From: Candidatus Heimdallarchaeota archaeon
GTDB lineage: Archaea; Asgardarchaeota; Heimdallarchaeia; JABLTI01
DNA length: 25,679 bases
Reading direction: 5' to 3'
NCBI GenBank assembly: GCA_019056785.1
Contig: DXJV01000013.1
Coordinates: 1 to 25,679 of the forward strand
Shown in pieces: positions 12,452 to 19,374 of this stretch (the first letter of the stretch is position 1; each line of letters begins with the position of its first letter). A program made the translations under genes and the position numbers. The notes under the pieces were generated by a model. That model saw only the letters and a list, made by a program, of their open reading frames with translations. It had not been told where the DNA came from and did not search any database.

Positions 12452-13224
12452 ATGATTTTGTCTAGTAAAAAGCATGTAATTATTATAATAAATGTTACAA
12501 CAATAGCAATTATAATTGCTATTGTTCTTGGGCTTGTTTTTTACGTCTGAAAGTTATTGACACAACACCGCCAGCTGTTGTGATTCATAGCCCAGAAGCA
12601 CAAGGCATTTATTATTCTCAGTTCCAAAATTTTCGGATCAAGGCGACTGATGATGTGGCAGTGGAAACGATCTGGTATTCATTGAATAGAGATAACAATA
12701 TCACTTATTACAGTATGGTTAGTCTCGCCTTTGCCAAAGGAATGAATACTCTGCAAGCCTGGACGAGAGACACTTCTGGAAACATTGGAACTATCTCAAT
12801 CACTTTTTATATATCAAGAGGGAATTTTATCACACGCTGGGATACAACGAACACCGCTTCTAACACCAGCGCTGAGAATCAGCTGCAGCTGCCACTGGAG
12901 CCCACCGGCGTGTATGATTTTCTCGTCGATTAGGGTGACGGTACAAGCGACCACATCACATCATGCGACCAGATAGCAACGCTGTATAATTATACAACTG
13001 CGGGCATTTACAAAATAAAAATCTCAGGTTTAATTAAAGGTTGGTGGTTTGCGTATAGTGGTAATTACGATGCTTTGCTTATTAGTTGGTCAGCTTTAAA
13101 TTTACAAAATGGTATTAGTTTTCATGGTGGCAACTCCAAATATAGCGCCGGCGCAGCAGCAACTGCGCGAGCGTATATCATTAGCACCTTTGGCTGGACG
13201 ATCATTGATGGAGGGCAAGTATAA
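12452..13224 (+). pseudogene. BspA/DUF285-type surface protein pseudogene (TM, Ig-like, PKD-like, C-terminal cap; repeats deleted)
   Basis: N-terminal TM ORF from ATG 12452; frameshift in T6 (12537-12542) into DTTPPAVVIHSP; FITRWDT; VD*GDG with TAG 12931 replacing W; frame continues ISGLIKGWWF...NYDALLISWSALNLQNGISFHGGNSKYS...FGWTIIDGGQV* (TAA 13222-13224). Confidence 0.8.
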
Positions 13225-13243: not shown

Positions 13244-13283
13244 TGGTATACCTCTTACGGAGCTATACCAGCTGTTTTTTTTT
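13244..13283 (+). terminator. Stem-loop plus T9 after the BspA pseudogene
   Basis: TGGTATAcCTC-ttacg-GAGcTATACCA followed by GCTG and T9. Confidence 0.55.
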
Positions 13284-13445
13284 CTTAAAAACATTGGAAG
13301 GTGGCTTTTCTTATTGCTCGAAAAATTTTTGAGTTGAATTGTTTTTTTTTGACTTGTCTTTACTCATTACTATCTATGATTTTGAGTCTAGACCAAGCAT
13401 TATTATTTAGGAAGTTATTTCCAAATAGAAATTATCCGGATTGAA

Positions 13446-15386
13446 ATGCTTATGATGTCTGTTGAAAAAATCTGTGAAATGTATGCTTTGAAAAACGCTT
13501 TGGAGTTTGGTAAAGCAGAAGTTAACCCTCTTATGCGAATAATCTTAGGAAAGCATTCCGAGTTGCGAACCAGAGCAAAAGAGGTTAAGGAAATCTTAGA
13601 ACGAGTTGTTGAAGAAATCAACAAATTGAAGAAAGAGGAAATTGAGAAAAGACTTTTGAAAAAATATCCTAAACTCCTTCAAGCAGAGAATTCAACAGTT
13701 GGCAAACAAGAACCAGAAATCGATTTTATTCGTGAAATGATTAATGAGGACATACGGACTGGTCGTTTTGGGGGGCGTGTCCACACTCGTTTCCCACCGG
13801 AACCTAATGGGTACCTTCATATTGGTCATGCAAAATCAATCAACCTTAATTATGGCATTGCACAAGATTACAATGGAAAATTCAATCTTCGCTTTGACGA
13901 TACCAATCCACTCACTGAAGAAGTGGAATATGTAAACAGTATTATTGAGGATGTTAAGTGGCTTGGCGCTGATTTTGAGGATCGATTATTCTTTGCCTCT
14001 GACTATTTTGATAAAATGTTCGAGTATGCACTTCAGCTTGTTGAAAAAGGTTTAGCATATGTCGATGACTCGAGTATTGAGCAAATACGAAAGGATCGAG
14101 GAACACTCACCCAGCCGGGAAAAGAAAGTCCTTATCGTAATCGCTCCATTGAAGAGAATAGAGATCTCTTTTTGCGTATGAAGAACGGAGAGTTTCCTGA
14201 GGGTTCAAAAGTCCTGCGAGCAAAAATTGATATGGCACATCCCAACTTGCTAATGCGCGACCCGATTATCTACAGGATTATTCATGCAAGCCATCATAGA
14301 ACAGGTGATAAATGGTGCATTTATCCGACCTACGACTGGGCGCATGGTTTGGAGGACTCAATTGAGGGTATAACTCATTCTATTTGTACTCTTGAGTTCG
14401 AGGTTCATAGGGAGTTGTATGACTGGTATTTGGACCAATTAACAGATGAAGAAGGAAAACCAATTTATCACCCTCAACAAATTGAATTCGCACGATTAAA
14501 TATCTCACATATTGTTCTTAGTAAAAGAAAGCAATTACGGCTGGTAAATGAAGGCTATGTTCGAGGTTGGGATGATCCTCGACTTTTAACTATTGCTGGT
14601 ATGCGTCGTGGGGGCATTACACCAGAAGCGATCAAGAAATTCACAGATCTCATCGGTGTCACGAAAAGAAATACCATCATCGATAGATCCATCTTCGACA
14701 AGTGCATCAGGGAGGATTTAGATGAACGTTGCTCTCGAGTTATGGCAGTATTACAGCCCTTAAAAGTTGTAATTACCAATTACCCAGAAAACAAAACCGA
14801 AACGCTCACCGCATCCAATCATCCCCGGAAAATAGAGATGGGTACGAGAAAAATAATCTTTACAAGAGAATTATATATCGAACGGGATGACTTTGCTGAG
14901 CAACCACCAAAAGGATTTAAACGCCTTTCGCCAGGGAAGGACGTACGATTGAAATATGCCTATATCATCAAATGTGAAAAAGTCATCAAAAATAAAAAAG
15001 GTGAAGTGATTGAGCTTCGTTGCAGCTATGACCCTGAATCAAAAAGCGGGGAAAAGGGCGAAGGACGAAAAGTGCAAGGAACAATCCATTGGCTTTCTGC
15101 TAAAAATGCAGCTAAAGCTGAAGTCCGCCTTTATGACCGGTTATTTTTAAAAGAAGATCCGCTCGAGACAGAAGAAGGAAAGGAATTCATTGACTATCTT
15201 AACCCAAATTCACTTACCATTGTAGGGGGCTTTGTAGAAGCACACCTCAAAAAAGCTGCCCCCGGCTCGAGGTACCAATTCGAACGATTAGGCTATTTTA
15301 ACATCGATCCTGTCGACTCGAGTGCGAACCATTTAGTTTTCAACAGAATTATTACCTTGAAGGATACATGGGCAAAGAACACTTAA
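13446..15386 (+). CDS. glnS: Glutamine--tRNA ligase (GlnRS) with archaeal GluRS-like N-terminal domain
   Basis: DFIREMINED, VHTRFPPEPNGYLHIGHAKS (HIGH), LRFDDTNP, WCIYPTYDW, HSICTLEF (Cys as in GlnRS, not the GluRS HxxRG), PQQIEFARL, LSKRK, GWDDPR, YQFERLGYF, VFNRIITLKDTW. Confidence 0.93.
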   Translation: MLMMSVEKICEMYALKNALEFGKAEVNPLMRIILGKHSELRTRAKEVKEILERVVEEINKLKKEEIEKRLLKKYPKLLQAENSTVGKQEPEIDFIREMINEDIRTGRFGGRVHTRFPPEPNGYLHIGHAKSINLNYGIAQDYNGKFNLRFDDTNPLTEEVEYVNSIIEDVKWLGADFEDRLFFASDYFDKMFEYALQLVEKGLAYVDDSSIEQIRKDRGTLTQPGKESPYRNRSIEENRDLFLRMKNGEFPEGSKVLRAKIDMAHPNLLMRDPIIYRIIHASHHRTGDKWCIYPTYDWAHGLEDSIEGITHSICTLEFEVHRELYDWYLDQLTDEEGKPIYHPQQIEFARLNISHIVLSKRKQLRLVNEGYVRGWDDPRLLTIAGMRRGGITPEAIKKFTDLIGVTKRNTIIDRSIFDKCIREDLDERCSRVMAVLQPLKVVITNYPENKTETLTASNHPRKIEMGTRKIIFTRELYIERDDFAEQPPKGFKRLSPGKDVRLKYAYIIKCEKVIKNKKGEVIELRCSYDPESKSGEKGEGRKVQGTIHWLSAKNAAKAEVRLYDRLFLKEDPLETEEGKEFIDYLNPNSLTIVGGFVEAHLKKAAPGSRYQFERLGYFNIDPVDSSANHLVFNRIITLKDTWAKNT

Positions 15387-15419
15387 CCTTCTCTAAAAGA
15401 AAAAAAAGAACGAAGAGAT

Positions 15420-15794
15420 TCAGGTATTGGGAACATAAATATCATGAATCTCTATGGGAATTGCCAATTCAAAGGATCCAATTTGAATTGTCACTTCACC
15501 ATTAATGATGCCCACATGTAACTGGTTCTTTATATAATATTCGTCATATAATCAAATGCCTTGTTCAATATTGCTTTCTGAAAAAGTAAAACTTTCTTGG
15601 AGAGAACCTTCTCCAGAAATTGTTCGTGGGGCTGCAGTCCAGTTGAAGTCTAAAGGTGTCAGAGAAATATTCGTTAGAATAGTATAGTCCCAAGTAGCTA
15701 CAAATGGAATCTCATAATAAGCACCATCGCCATCATCATAAACTAGAAACCCAGTAAAAGAAGTAATATTTATTTCAAAATTAACAAGGTTATA
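15420..15794 (-). pseudogene. 3' remnant of a secreted beta-rich protein gene, not in the ORF track
   Basis: Minus frame YNLVNFEINITSFTGFLVYDDGDGAYYEIPF...QGI*(TGA 15552-15554)LYDEYYIKNQLHVGIINGEVTIQIGSFELAIPIEIHDIYVPNT*; ~124 codons with one internal stop and no start codon. Confidence 0.6.
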
Positions 15795-16120
15795 ACAATA
15801 TGATTTATCTCACTTTTAGTGAAGAAATGAATAGTTTGAAGGCGTGGGCAAAAGACACTTCAGGAAATATCAGCACGGCAACAGCCACTTTTTATGTCTC
15901 GAGACCCAATTTCACCACATAATGTGACACGAAAAATACTTCTCCAGGTTCGAGTGCTGAGAATCAGCTGTAACTGCCGTTGGAACCCATCGGCGTGTAT
16001 AATTTTCTCATCGATTGGCGTGATGGTACAAGCGGCCGCATCACTTTTTGGAACCAAGCTACAACAGTTCATAACTATGACCTATGCAGGAATTCATAAA
16101 TACCACTTTTAAGGCATATA
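15791..16120 (+). pseudogene. Second, more decayed BspA/DUF285-type fragment
   Basis: MNSLKAWAKDTSGNISTATATFYVSRPNFTT*CDTKNTSPGSSAENQL*LPLEPIGVYNFLIDWRDGTS, collinear with ~12706-13020; stops at 15920 and 15971; frameshift near 16080. Confidence 0.8.
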
Positions 16121-16161
16121 CATTTTAAGGCGTTTAAACCAACATTTTGTTTTTAATTGCA

Positions 16162-16177
16162 AAAGAAAAATTTAAAA
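16162..16177 (+). promoter_or_regulatory. BRE/TATA promoter of the tRNA gene
   Basis: Purine-rich AAAGAAAAA followed by TTTAAAA, ~40 nt upstream of the mature 5' end. Confidence 0.55.
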
Positions 16178-16213
16178 CAGAGTGAGAAACTACAAAAGTG
16201 ATAACGAAACCAT

Positions 16214-16352
16214 AGGCCTGTGGTGTAGAGTGCCGAGAAATTCAAGCCGGCATGCACACTGGCAAGCATAAGGGACTTTGAAAGAAGTACCTGATAGCTT
16301 CGGGATTTCCAAGAATCCCTTGATCGGAGTTCGAATCTCCGCAGGCCTACCA
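16214..16352 (+). tRNA. tRNA-Gln(UUG) with two introns (16230-16258 at position 16/17; 33-nt anticodon-loop intron, best fit 16283-16315 at 38/39); CCA encoded
   Basis: Acceptor AGGCCTG/CAGGCCT-A-CCA; D-stem GTGT/GCAT; anticodon stem AGGGA/TCCCT with spliced loop CTTTGAA; T-arm CGGAG-TTCGAAT-CTCCG; mature length 77 nt; both inserts fold into bulge-helix-bulge-like motifs. Confidence 0.92.
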
Positions 16353-16355
16353 ACC

Positions 16356-16362
16356 TTTTTTT
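16356..16362 (+). terminator. Oligo-T terminator after the tRNA
   Basis: T7 starting 4 nt after CCA. Confidence 0.6.
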
Positions 16363-16557
16363 CAACAAATAATTAGACGATTTTATGAGATATGAGCTTA
16401 AAACAATTAAAAAACGACAAATGTAAATCCTGACTCAAAGTAATTCCGAAAACTTCCGCACGCTTAACATTTCCGGAAAAAAGGACAAATTGTCAATATT
16501 TTTTTAGATCGGTTTCAAGATTAAAAAAAGACAAAGGGAATGTGTAAAAGAATGCTA

Positions 16558-19374
16558 TTATAGCTGCTTAATCCCTTTTATTGTGTCTTTTCTGAATATT
16601 ATCCAAGAGGTAAGTGCTGCTGCAGCTAATGCTATTGAGAACAAAAGCACAAAGGCTAATGCAAATTGCCATTGTGGGATGATTAGTCGTACCGGCGGGA
16701 GGGTATAATCTATCGTCAATATTTCGAGGAACATTTTTGCTGAGAAGATACCGATTGCAGCACCGAGGACAGAGCCAAAAAGGACGATGGATAGTGCTTC
16801 ATAAGTGAACAAGCTAAACAATTGTTTAGGAGACATCCCCAATGTTTTCAACATTACGACTTCCATCTCATTTTCAATGGATTGGATGATAATCATAAGC
16901 GAAAGTGCCGCAACAATGATAACCAATGATGAGATGAACGAGGTATTTAAAGAGCCATAGAGCATTGTATTTCGCAAGCTGTCTCCCGAGGTTTTCATTA
17001 AGTCTTCTATGTTATCTACCGACCGTCCAAGTGTTAGCTCGATGTTTCGTGCGACCGTTGTGATAGAATAACCTGGGGCAACTTTCACCAGCAAATCACC
17101 TACGACACTAAATTGATTATAAGCCACTGCTTCTGTCAAGTTATAATTCCCAATGACGCTAAACCGATAGACTGTTGACCCTTCTCGCGGATAATTCATA
17201 AAGAATCGAGGGAAGTAATTGTATTGCCCAACGACTGTCAAGTTTAAACCTATAAGACCTGTTCCAGATTTCTCTACCCAGAGGACAATTTTACTATCAT
17301 CTACTACTCCCACTTGTCGTGCTTCATCTTTTTGCATGAGGACTTCAGAGGGACTCTGGATACGATCAAAGAACGCTTCTGGTTTGCCATCAAAATAGTT
17401 CTTTTCAAAATGAGCAACTTTTACAAATTCTTCTGGATCAATCCCAACAACTAGATAGGAATAGAGTACAGAGCCGTAACTAACCAATTGGCTGGTAAAT
17501 CTCACATATGTTCCGGCTTCCACGCCCTCTACACCTAAAACTTGCTCTTTAATGGTGTCAGTTGAGACTTTAACATTCCGAACAAGAATATCTGCTCCCA
17601 AGGAATAATAGGCTTGTTCAGCGTCATAATTTTTATAAGAGGAAATGGTTGTCATTGAAGAAATGATTAGTGTAAAGGTGAGGGATATTAACACCAAGGA
17701 TCTGATAACTGCGTTTCTTCTCCGCAGGCTTCGTTTCGCAGCTAAACCAAGAATGCCTAGCCGAGAGCGCTTCCAACCGATTTTTCCGAGGAGCTTAATA
17801 AAGTAGGGATAAATCCTTGTAACAAAGAGAATACTTCCAAGGATTAAGCAAACAGGGGCAGTTGTGCCAAAACCATACGCGAAGGAATAGGTTGCTAACC
17901 CTTTAAGTTGCAATTTGACAACAATCCAGAGTGAAACACCAATTACGATCAAAATAACATCTAGAAACATTTTTTGCCATGTGGGCTTCTTTTGAATGGT
18001 TGTCCCATAGGCCTCTTCTGTAGAGATATTACTCATCTCCCAGATAGATTTAGCATTAATTATTGTCGAAAAAATAAAGGCCGTCGCGATTATCGTGAAA
18101 AAGATTATCAAATTTATTGCCGGAAAAAGGCTCGTACCGGAAAAAGCTAAGAATCCGCTACTTCGAATCATTAGCCAAGCAAAAGGATAGCCAATGACAA
18201 AACAAATGAGTATGGCCATAATAGTGTACTCTACCACTTGAAAAGTTAGAAGAGTTAAGACTTCCTTTCTCGAGGAGCCTCTTTGGAGCATGTTAGAGAT
18301 GTGTCGTTTCTGTCGTTTTTTCATTAAATGAGTGGAATAATTCGTTAAAGAGAGAGCCATACCAATAATTGGCGTTATAAATAAGAGACCAAAAAGCTGG
18401 AAAATAACAAACTCTTCATTGAACTCGTATAACCGGTCCACAAGGTCCAAATCTATTTGTGCTGGAAGATCCAGTTCATCAAAAACACGTGCAAGCTCTT
18501 GCCCTAATTGCTGGAGATTTTTTATCTCACCTCCCACATTAAAAGCATCGATTTTTCGAAGGTCAAAAGCAAACCTGCATTTAAAGCCAGCAAATCCCTT
18601 GTCATAATTAATACGGTTAATAAAATTGAATAATCCATCGTATTTTGTTATAAGAAACTGATCTGTTAGATAATCGTCGAGCGCACGCATGTCTTCTTTT
18701 AGTGGCCCTAGATAATTCTCGAAATCCTCTGCTGCGACTACGCCGGTAATGTTAATATAATTTCCTGCTTCCGGGATTCCCAGCTCAACAGAATCCCAAA
18801 CGCTGGGGGGCATTTTTACAAAAACAGGGACATATAACGGAAAAAGTCCCAGCTTTGAAAGATTGGTGTTTTCAATCACACTTCTTTTTACTACTGCAAG
18901 CGCTTCATTTGTACGATATGGAAGGCTTCCATTATAGAGGAGTGATTCGAAGGCGCTATAATAATCGACAGGCAACCCAAAGAGACTAAGCCCTGAAATC
19001 AGCTGATCGTCCCCAGCAGGGTTATTAGAACTAAGATAAAGAATTCCCCCTCGTTCGGTAATAATATCCACACGTCGAACACGATCAACCATGCCGGCGT
19101 CTTCAATTGCTCTTTGTGTGGCATTTTTTATAGTGAAAATAATAGTCTCTCTGACATCTGTGACATCAAAAAAGTCGATTGAAACAGTAAGCTGTTTGGT
19201 TGGAGGGGTCTTATTGAAATTACTAAAAGCATCATATTGAAAACTATACATGAAAATGAGCCCCTCTGAAATAATTGCCAGGCTAATTCCCAGTCCCAAG
19301 AATATAACAATAGTGTTTTTTCTATTAAGATTGAGCATTTTGTAAAAAAATTTGATTTGCTCAAGCAGTTTCAT
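16558..19374 (-). CDS. FtsX-like ABC transporter permease with two FtsX modules
   Basis: RQKRHISNMLQRGSSRKE and ENEMEVVMLKTLGMSPKQLFSLFTYEAL coupling motifs; LGADILV; two large extracellular domains. Confidence 0.88.
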   Translation of the reverse strand: MKLLEQIKFFYKMLNLNRKNTIVIFLGLGISLAIISEGLIFMYSFQYDAFSNFNKTPPTKQLTVSIDFFDVTDVRETIIFTIKNATQRAIEDAGMVDRVRRVDIITERGGILYLSSNNPAGDDQLISGLSLFGLPVDYYSAFESLLYNGSLPYRTNEALAVVKRSVIENTNLSKLGLFPLYVPVFVKMPPSVWDSVELGIPEAGNYINITGVVAAEDFENYLGPLKEDMRALDDYLTDQFLITKYDGLFNFINRINYDKGFAGFKCRFAFDLRKIDAFNVGGEIKNLQQLGQELARVFDELDLPAQIDLDLVDRLYEFNEEFVIFQLFGLLFITPIIGMALSLTNYSTHLMKKRQKRHISNMLQRGSSRKEVLTLLTFQVVEYTIMAILICFVIGYPFAWLMIRSSGFLAFSGTSLFPAINLIIFFTIIATAFIFSTIINAKSIWEMSNISTEEAYGTTIQKKPTWQKMFLDVILIVIGVSLWIVVKLQLKGLATYSFAYGFGTTAPVCLILGSILFVTRIYPYFIKLLGKIGWKRSRLGILGLAAKRSLRRRNAVIRSLVLISLTFTLIISSMTTISSYKNYDAEQAYYSLGADILVRNVKVSTDTIKEQVLGVEGVEAGTYVRFTSQLVSYGSVLYSYLVVGIDPEEFVKVAHFEKNYFDGKPEAFFDRIQSPSEVLMQKDEARQVGVVDDSKIVLWVEKSGTGLIGLNLTVVGQYNYFPRFFMNYPREGSTVYRFSVIGNYNLTEAVAYNQFSVVGDLLVKVAPGYSITTVARNIELTLGRSVDNIEDLMKTSGDSLRNTMLYGSLNTSFISSLVIIVAALSLMIIIQSIENEMEVVMLKTLGMSPKQLFSLFTYEALSIVLFGSVLGAAIGIFSAKMFLEILTIDYTLPPVRLIIPQWQFALAFVLLFSIALAAAALTSWIIFRKDTIKGIKQL

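Follow-up and report, generated by a model that had tools for sequence, protein, structure and literature searches.

A bacterial-type glutaminyl-tRNA synthetase fused to an archaeal GluRS-type N-terminal domain and linked to a tRNA-Gln gene in Heimdallarchaeia

According to reviews up to 2022, no archaeon has a glutaminyl-tRNA synthetase (GlnRS), which has been ascribed to the divergent archaeal tRNA-Gln with its A73 and A1:U72 (PMC9499178, PMC8762117); an 'orthogonality barrier' has been proposed as the reason why archaea never took up the enzyme (Tumbula et al. 2000, as cited in PMC9499178). The closest described systems are the GlnRS of bacteria (e.g. E. coli GlnS, PDB 1GTS/1QTQ/1O0B, and P. 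aeruginosa GlnRS, 5BNZ), the archaeal glutamyl-tRNA synthetase of the non-discriminating kind (ND-GluRS; M. thermautotrophicus, PDB 3AII; models NF003169/TIGR00463), and two GlnRS with appended domains, i.e. that of Deinococcus radiodurans with a C-terminal YqeY (PDB 2HZ7; NF011291; PMC1865053) and that of eukaryotes, in which a helical N-terminal domain (NTD) is tethered to the core (yeast Gln4 NTD, PDB 3TL4; human, 4YE6; PMC3333875). The yeast domain raises the affinity for tRNA-Gln (PMC3333875). A preprint notes in passing that Hodarchaeales and Kariarchaeaceae have GlnRS next to cox genes (10.1101/2024.07.04.601786). Here we analyzed a chimeric GlnRS gene in a 25,679-nt stretch of DNA from Candidatus Heimdallarchaeota archaeon (the window), which is the entire 25.7-kb contig (C91; GenBank DXJV01000013.1) of a 2.87-Mb metagenome bin. 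An initial annotation had described the gene, from the sequence alone, as an archaeal GluRS-type N-terminal domain joined to a bacterial-type GlnRS core, and had stated that archaea classically lack GlnRS, in agreement with the reviews. Our search of the literature, which left most subscription journals outside, met with this preprint as the sole trace of GlnRS in Heimdallarchaeia and found no paper on the chimera or on a linkage between GlnRS and tRNA-Gln genes. We find that the chimeric GlnRS with its linked tRNA-Gln is real, conserved and selected, and that, contrary to the reviews, an entire clade of archaea possesses GlnRS.

All sequence criteria applied place the chimera among GlnRS. It reaches 716.1 bits on TIGR00440 (glnS equivalog; cut-off 425.8), the match spanning positions 1–524 of the 524 in the profile, and scores under the cut-offs of both archaeal GluRS models (NF003169, TIGR00463). 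Three Pfam domains (PF00749, residues 112–426; PF03950, 429–529; PF20974, 546–621) lie well over their cut-offs, and residues 1–95 match no Pfam family. Residues 92–644 align end to end with the E. coli and P. aeruginosa GlnRS structures (E ~1e-199), which bears out the reading of the protein from D93 up to the C-terminus as an E. coli-like core; the same three Pfam domains, motifs, pocket and loops are collinear with bacterial GlnRS over residues 93–646. The class Ib motifs appear in the translation as 'YLHIGHAKS' (HIGH) and 'VLSKRK' ((K)MSK), and the Gln-pocket segments 'TRFPPEPNG', 'YPTYDW', 'HSICTLEF' and 'PQQIEF' are conserved with bacterial GlnRS, the pocket positions being, as we take it, those of E. 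coli R30, Y211, C229 and Q255. The HIGH region and the motifs YPTYD, SICTLEF, PQQIEF, VLSKRK and QFER, several of them cited in the initial annotation, are all in the translation, where they match bacterial GlnRS and differ from the GluRS of the same genome, which has 'HVGRSAEF' and 'PEIFHY' where the core has 'HSICTLEF' and 'PQQIEF'. Two further modules of GlnRS, the acceptor-unpairing loop and the G36-recognition loop, are absent from ND-GluRS (PMC2978374). Both GlnRS-specific segments, 'RGTLTQPGKESPYRNRS' and 'HPRKIEMGTRK', are kept and are gapless against P. aeruginosa GlnRS; in the GluRS of this genome, these places show unrelated sequence or a gap of 4 residues. The core is 66–68% identical to the GlnRS of Ignavibacteria, Melioribacteraceae and Bacteroidota (the next-best matches, which cover the core only), 41–49% identical to representatives of eukaryote-type GlnRS and 33% identical to the genome's own GluRS. 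With its catalytic motifs, Gln-pocket residues and two tRNA-reading loops kept, the core is very probably an ordinary working GlnRS, and the chimeric enzyme would be specific for glutamine and active. Compared with bacterial GlnRS it has ~92 extra N-terminal residues of archaeal GluRS origin and a 6-residue insert ahead of PQQIEF, which is specific to the clade of fused enzymes; also, the tRNA-Gln of the host carries A1:U72 and A73 where that of bacteria has U1:A72 and G73.

The N-terminal GluRS-type domain (N-domain) has a different affiliation. Residues 1–95 alone match only archaeal GluRS models (NF003169, E 2.7e-16, residues 3–89 on profile positions 2–91; TIGR00463, E 4.4e-9), and over 80 residues the domain shares 39% identity with the N-terminus of the GluRS in this genome (BLASTP, E 5e-13), as expected from the annotation. 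A word-based protein search with residues 1–92 alone returned 3 proteins only and was uninformative. Homology to archaeal ND-GluRS extends to the position of the domain, which in both enzymes stands before the catalytic domain; the two enzymes also have the class Ib fold family with beta-barrel anticodon-binding domains in common, in contrast to the low identity and sub-threshold scores of the core given above. Every Asgard GluRS examined has the N-domain, and a profile built from the fused N-domains scores Asgard GluRS N-termini with 17–84 bits, one type of Hodarchaeales GluRS coming out on top. An AlphaFold2 model from 36 aligned sequences predicts a compact bundle of 4–5 helices (6–21, 26–36, 38–59, 63–73 and 76–79), with a predicted local distance difference test score (pLDDT) of ~90 over residues 10–70; the linker that follows is variable in length and sequence among homologues. 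N17, G22, A24 and N59 are invariant in the alignment of fused GlnRS and GluRS copies alike. Over 12 close pairs, the ratio of nonsynonymous to synonymous substitution rates (dN/dS) was 0.08–0.34 for the N-domain and 0.04–0.13 for the core. Because of these ratios and the four invariant positions common to GluRS, the N-domain is taken to be maintained by purifying selection. Its mean identity is lower than that of the core (~48% versus ~68%), and the window's own N-domain is unusually divergent (48% identity to the nearest relative, versus 73% for the core). Synonymous divergence of the two halves is discordant in several pairs, e.g. 0.19 versus 1.23 and 2.6 versus 0.33 (L028/L038, L037/L042, L045/L048; genomes G086/G082, G085/G084, G024/G031); thus N-domain and core recombine separately among strains.

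Both described GlnRS with appended domains resemble the chimera in architecture and differ from it in detail. The Deinococcus enzyme likewise combines a bacterial-type core with a small helical domain from the glutamate/amidotransferase pathway, but the domain of the chimera is N-terminal, has ~75 residues rather than 215 and comes from archaeal GluRS. The NCBI pipeline names the Asgard proteins by NF011291 ('GlnRS/YqeY fusion'); this match covers profile positions 12–559 of 769 and the protein ends with the core at residue 646, so there is no C-terminal YqeY and the database name is misleading. Eukaryotic GlnRS share with the chimera the tethered helical domain in front of the core, but the N-domain gives no sequence or Pfam match to the R1/R2 NTD, and the core belongs to the bacterial clade. 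Structural comparison of the N-domain model with the tail subdomain (residues 118–181) of the human GlnRS NTD by VIA-align gave Z 5.2 at a root-mean-square deviation of 4.1 A over 59 aligned residues (rank 22), which is within noise. The chimera is therefore neither a member of the Deinococcus GlnRS/YqeY family nor a eukaryotic GlnRS, and it adds a third independent case, after Deinococcus and eukaryotes, of a GlnRS that recruited a small domain from the glutamate/amidotransferase pathway.

The fusion is found far beyond the window. Its junction (13680–13730) is bridged by metagenome contigs from 4 runs of 4 different studies with 0–23 differences, the probable source sample being excluded from this count; the contigs have 3,997 nt (covering 13271–16600), 2,064 nt (covering 13397–15460), 927 nt and 530 nt, and so supply the read continuity that the annotation had wished to see. 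Its question about the taxonomy of the contig is answered as well: the contig is archaeal, ~60 full-length homologues (636–657 aa, 58–86% identical) are named Heimdallarchaeaceae, Heimdallarchaeota or Asgard group, and the remaining genes of the window (a TrmB regulator, MvhD/HdrBC-like proteins, FtsX-type permeases) fit an archaeon, while being uninformative on GlnRS. Among 400 Asgard genomes surveyed, only three families, all from a single class, have GlnRS: it is present in 9/11 genomes of the window's own family (f1), in 21/31 genomes of a second family (f3), two closed ones among them, and in 12/22 genomes of a third (f6), which is Hodarchaeales by its NCBI names; it was found in 0 of ~330 genomes of the other Asgard families sampled. 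The N-domain is present in each of the 29 GlnRS genes that were read from f1 and f3, including those of the closed single-contig genomes G015 and G016 (3.1 and 3.3 Mb). In Hodarchaeales the enzyme is unfused, with the N-domain in 0/12 genes read. The Hodarchaeales GlnRS resembles the chimera in its type of imported core, its host class, the tRNA-Gln directly downstream and the retained GluRS and GatDE; it differs from the chimera by the missing N-domain, a different loop insert, G73 in the adjacent tRNAs and its position apart from the fused clade in the maximum-likelihood tree.

The partner of the GlnRS gene in the window is a tRNA-Gln(UUG) gene with two predicted introns, which starts 828 nt downstream of the GlnRS stop. 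Genome scans with ARAGORN and Rfam RF00005 missed it, and only a custom covariance model, built from 17 Heimdallarchaeial tRNA-Gln genes, detected it (match 16214–16349). The gene has A1:U72, G2:C71, G3:C70, A37, A73 and an encoded CCA. Its introns lie in the D-loop and after position 37, and removal of ~29–31 nt and 33 nt, respectively, yields a canonical tRNA-Gln(UUG) by ARAGORN. Two other tRNA-Gln genes are present in the genome, one for CUG with A37/A73 (C49:24354-24468) and one for UUG with G37/A73 (C64:3927-4032); the D-loop intron, at a non-canonical position, is found in 3/3 tRNA-Gln genes of this genome. RF00005 recovered only 28 tRNAs genome-wide, and intron-rich tRNAs are probably under-detected in this bin. 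E. coli GlnRS recognizes its tRNA by the discriminator base, the 1-72, 3-70 and 10-25 pairs and the anticodon (PMC9976931).

Across all three families the linkage of GlnRS and tRNA-Gln is the rule. In f1, the linked intron-bearing tRNA-Gln was read in three further genomes of the same genus (G084, G085, G086) and located by coordinates only in a fourth (G082:C20:10452-10557); it lies ~100 nt downstream of GlnRS in G086 and G082 and 3–4 kb away in G084 and G085. Among the 27 tRNA-Gln genes of f1, 26 have A73 and one has U73, and the GlnRS-linked type is the intron-bearing UUG/A37 gene. The single U73, which is the eukaryotic discriminator, is on a tRNA-Gln(UUG, A37) in the window's genus (G082:C41:228195-228267). 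In f3, a UUG/A37/A73 gene follows GlnRS at a distance of 76–300 nt in 8 genomes that were read and in 4 more by coordinates, and 32/36 tRNA-Gln genes have A73. Hodarchaeales genomes have the unfused GlnRS followed directly by tRNA-Gln(CUG) and tRNA-Gln(UUG), with G73 and A37 and no encoded CCA, and in two closed genomes a second tRNA-Gln set, with A73/G37, is found elsewhere. Relatives that lack GlnRS (f5, f7 and one f6 genome) have tRNA-Gln with G37 and A73. Bacterial-like features are thus seen in the linked tRNAs, with A37 in all of them and G73 chiefly beside unfused enzymes. A37, too, is an identity element for E. coli GlnRS. The locus shows change on both sides, with an N-domain from GluRS on the enzyme and A37 instead of the G37 of GlnRS-less relatives on the linked tRNA-Gln. 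A strict split into fused enzymes with A73 and unfused enzymes with G73 was rejected, as, within a single f3 genus, a tRNA-Gln(CUG) with G73 lies 1.2–4.6 kb from the fused GlnRS in four genomes.

One f3 genus has an extra tRNA-Gln-like gene by the fused GlnRS, 260–295 nt away in three genomes (G018:C139:14595-14666, G034:C173:20164-20235 and G027:C108:10978-11049) and ~4 kb away in a fourth (G025:C50:10105-10176). It has A1:U72, A73 and CCA, and its anticodon stem seems to enclose six letters only (UUUAGG in three genomes, UUUUGG in one); it may be a pseudo-tRNA or otherwise atypical.

To place the core, trees were calculated from the Asgard sequences, their nearest bacterial matches and GlnRS representatives at 50% identity, the outgroup being either eukaryote-type GlnRS or the GluRS of the window's genome (182 rows with FastTree; 82 rows with IQ-TREE, LG+G4); eukaryote-type GlnRS were represented by sequences with long N-terminal extensions. 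In both trees these form a separate clade (support 100) outside all bacterial and Asgard sequences, and all Asgard cores lie deep inside the bacterial GlnRS radiation. The fused clade (support 100/100) is sister to FCB/PVC-type sequences, from Ignavibacteria, Bacteroidota, Omnitrophota and Planctomycetota, at 99/93 (IQ-TREE), and the Hodarchaeales cores form a clade of their own (support 100) near Desulfobacterota-like sequences. In an approximately unbiased (AU) test a single Asgard clade was neither rejected nor supported (delta lnL 25.4, p = 0.229). The inserts before PQQIEF differ between the fused and the Hodarchaeales clade, basal Hodarchaeales sequences have no insert, and the alignment showed no shared indel uniting the two groups. 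Whether there were one or two transfers, their direction, as judged from these trees, is from bacteria to archaea. When the N-domains were placed in a tree, the fused copies grouped at 97/90 with those of one Hodarchaeales GluRS type and fell inside the Heimdallarchaeial GluRS N-domains; with 99 columns in the alignment, this placement is only indicative. Of the two origins that the annotation had offered, a bacterium-to-archaeon transfer that acquired a native domain is thus favoured by both halves of the protein, and the other, a lineage that would tell how GlnRS arose, finds no support: since the core is nested in bacteria and the eukaryotic clade is separate, the sequences point to horizontal transfer plus a native domain rather than to a relic. 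This settles the Asgard enzyme as an import and not as the root of eukaryotic GlnRS.

A separate observation concerns bacterial GlnRS near the Hodarchaeales clade (Desulfatiglandales, 'Deltaproteobacteria'; P0322, P0336, P0362, P0375 and others), which bear a C-terminal PF01588 (EMAP/Trbp111-type) tRNA-binding domain. This is another independent domain appended to GlnRS.

The indirect route to Gln-tRNA is retained beside the new enzyme. The genome of the window encodes its own archaeal GluRS (contig C47, 546 bits) and two GatD and two GatE paralogues (contigs C11 and C4/C2), so that all three genes for which the annotation had proposed to look are present. Most genomes of the genus have a canonical GatE (~640 bits) and a divergent one (~430 bits), which shows that the GatE duplication is not contamination; f3 has the divergent type only, and the GatD paralogues are known from the window's genome. 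Divergent GatE and GlnRS share one contig in two genomes. Within the class, GatE occurs in 78/83 genomes and GluRS likewise in nearly all, and by their gene content direct and indirect routes to Gln-tRNA coexist. Hodarchaeales genomes bear one of two distinct GluRS types, which around the HIGH motif read 'RLPPEPSGYLHIGH' and 'RLAPYPSGPLHIGN', respectively (L140-L143; G067, G075 versus G058, G074), and among GluRS it is the 'RLPPEPSGYLHIGH' type whose N-domain comes closest to that of the fused GlnRS.

The best explanation of these data, to which we give somewhat better than even chances, is that the chimera is a working GlnRS of bacterial descent, acquired horizontally, onto which the N-domain of GluRS was grafted as a native handle for tRNA-Gln, and which operates alongside ND-GluRS/GatDE. 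A Heimdallarchaeial lineage would have acquired a bacterial GlnRS by horizontal transfer, and a copy of the ~75-residue N-domain that all Asgard GluRS have would then have been attached to the imported core through a linker that is short and disordered. With its HIGH/MSK motifs, Gln pocket, acceptor-unpairing loop and G36-recognition loop, the core would activate glutamine and charge tRNA-Gln directly. The N-domain would most likely give the enzyme an additional, native handle for archaeal tRNA-Gln, whose A1:U72 and, in this case, A73 contrast with the U1:A72 and G73 of bacteria. Finally, the enzyme would work beside the retained ND-GluRS/GatDE route, genetically linked to a tRNA-Gln(UUG) with A37. 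That the N-domain binds tRNA is an assumption here, as it was in the initial annotation; the analogy with Deinococcus YqeY and the yeast GlnRS NTD makes the handle the best-supported reading of its role. This reading fits the finding that the directly adjacent tRNA-Gln keeps A73 in every genome with a fused enzyme. More specifically, and more tentatively, the N-domain might let the bacterial core accept the native A73 tRNA-Gln and thereby be an enzyme-side answer to the orthogonality barrier, Hodarchaeales having found a tRNA-side answer in a dedicated G73/A37 set; we regard this as possible but doubtful. If true, Heimdallarchaeia would hold two natural, comparable routes of wiring a foreign synthetase into the archaeal code, each beside GatDE. 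In any case, with the unfused/G73 version of Hodarchaeales as a natural comparison, the old argument about why archaea have no GlnRS becomes experimentally testable. What the present analysis adds is a survey, across the families, of positions 37 and 73 in tRNA-Gln, evidence that G73 can occur together with the N-domain, an AU test of one versus two transfers and independent support for the junction in the window.

Several results weigh against an N-domain that serves as a tRNA handle on a working enzyme. Hodarchaeales and bacteria use the same kind of core without it, and the G73 tRNAs near the fused enzyme in four f3 genomes imply that the N-domain is not simply an alternative to retuning of the tRNA. 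Its net charge is about neutral (median −0.5 in fused enzymes, +5 in the window copy). Pfam searches with 36 N-domains gave no consistent family, Foldseek of the model against the PDB gave no match at E <= 0.001, and the best hits of VIA-align over 48,161 chains (Z 6.5; talin F2, PadR-like etc.) are within helical-bundle noise. The archaeal GluRS N-domain has been called 'YQEY domain' and is disordered in the crystal of M. thermautotrophicus ND-GluRS, the only structure (PMC2978374); the kinship to YqeY or the GatB tail that this name implies was not recovered by Pfam, Foldseek or hhalign, the latter giving 0.5% probability for the N-domain profile against the C-terminal tail/YqeY region of the genome's own GatE (PF02637/PF09424). 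The retention of GatDE everywhere means that GlnRS could be redundant or conditional, and none of the public runs listed as containing the locus is an RNA run.

Some of the same observations suit a genuine GlnRS whose N-domain is a protein docking module for a partner of GluRS (e.g. GatDE, EF-1alpha or a synthetase complex) and serves channelling or regulation. A neutral domain without resemblance to known RNA-binding folds, present on all Asgard GluRS and under purifying selection, would be compatible with this role, and the coexistence of both pathways makes coordination between them plausible; however, no such partner is known or suggested by the gene neighbourhood in the window, and the published domains appended to GlnRS bind tRNA (PMC1865053, PMC3333875). 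We consider docking unlikely, if still the strongest competitor of the tRNA handle.

Improbable, in our view, is an N-domain that is a mere passenger, gained by recombination of the transferred gene with a duplicated gluX-type gene, into or behind the 5' part of the latter, which would have supplied a native promoter and start. Nearly the same core works unfused in bacteria and is kept unfused in Hodarchaeales, and the N-domain evolves faster than the core and recombines separately from it, all of which a passenger could do; but its dN/dS in the 12 close pairs, the four invariant positions common to GluRS and the fact that it is lost or broken in 0/29 genes argue for a function. We rate no higher the chances that the function of the whole enzyme has drifted, so that it would charge only the linked A37 tRNA-Gln under some conditions, have an altered amino-acid specificity or be a regulatory paralogue. 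GatDE and ND-GluRS are kept in every family with GlnRS, clade-specific changes such as the 6-residue insert before PQQIEF have accumulated, and in related lineages GlnRS lies beside cox genes (10.1101/2024.07.04.601786). Against such drift stand the conservation of all catalytic and Gln-pocket motifs, the low dN/dS of the core and a score far over the glnS equivalog cut-off.

The host belongs to Heimdallarchaeia, among the closest archaeal relatives of eukaryotes, and features of GluRS and GlnRS are combined in one chain, as might be expected of an intermediate in the transition from archaeal GluRS to GlnRS that yielded the eukaryotic enzyme. This origin is nevertheless very improbable: the core is nested among bacterial GlnRS with 66–68% identity, both core trees already disfavour it by placing eukaryote-type sequences in a separate clade, Pfam finds no eukaryotic N-terminal domain, and the other Asgard families sampled have no GlnRS. 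An assembly or binning artefact that joined an archaeal 5' end to a bacterial gene, conceivable for a metagenome bin with 82.5% completeness and 4.1% contamination, is refuted by the bridging contigs of four other studies, and by the same junction in 29 assemblies, the two single-contig genomes included; the GC content, too, is uniform over the whole window.

Table 1. Features of the GlnRS locus in the window
Feature	Coordinates	Strand	Evidence
Chimeric GlnRS gene (646 aa plus stop)	13446..15386	+	Open reading frame, translation, TIGR00440 match
Archaeal GluRS-type N-terminal helical domain, residues 6–79	13461..13682	+	NF003169 match, identity to own GluRS, AlphaFold2 model
Polar/acidic linker, residues 80–92, predicted disordered	13683..13721	+	pLDDT <50 over residues 80–93
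Bacterial-type GlnRS core, residues 93–646	13722..15383	+	Pfam, alignment with E. coli and P. aeruginosa GlnRS
Core, first helix		+	
Core, Rossmann catalytic domain	13779..14723	+	
Core, beta-barrel anticodon-binding domain	14730..15032	+	
Core, beta-barrel anticodon-binding domain	15081..15308	+	
tRNA-Gln(UUG) gene, two predicted introns	16214..16352	+	Covariance model (56.8 bits, E 1.6e-13), sequence read, ARAGORN after intron removal
Direct repeat bracketing GlnRS, upstream copy; decayed surface-protein-like gene fragment	12705..12993	+	blastn, tblastx
Direct repeat, downstream copy, between GlnRS and the tRNA-Gln gene	15790..16078	+	Two internal stops

The positions given for S5 (13458) and D93 (13722) in the initial annotation are correct. 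The open reading frame begins with MLMMSVEK, whereas all relatives in the alignment begin with MKSVE or MNSVE, so the true start codon may be the ATG at 13452 or 13455 (third or fourth codon) rather than that at 13446.

An unusual GluRS of 1,214 aa was seen in a small (0.9 Mb) Asgard genome (L151 723-4364, G284:C85). It carries ~640 extra residues ahead of a normal N-domain and core; this extension has a zinc ribbon and otherwise matches no family.

The GlnRS gene is bracketed by a direct repeat (Table 1), the copies of which are 72% identical over 255 nt by blastn (match 15790-16044) and 57% identical over 96 codons by tblastx, with a stop inside. The decayed fragments read '...FITRWDTTNT...LPLEPTGVYDFLVD'. 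This repeat pair may be a trace of the insertion or duplication of the GlnRS gene or of a 3.1-kb unit. A 12-kb contig from metagenome run X5 matches the window on both sides of 15793–16134 but has 1,247 other letters there (~340 in the window); thus the spacer between GlnRS and tRNA-Gln varies between strains.

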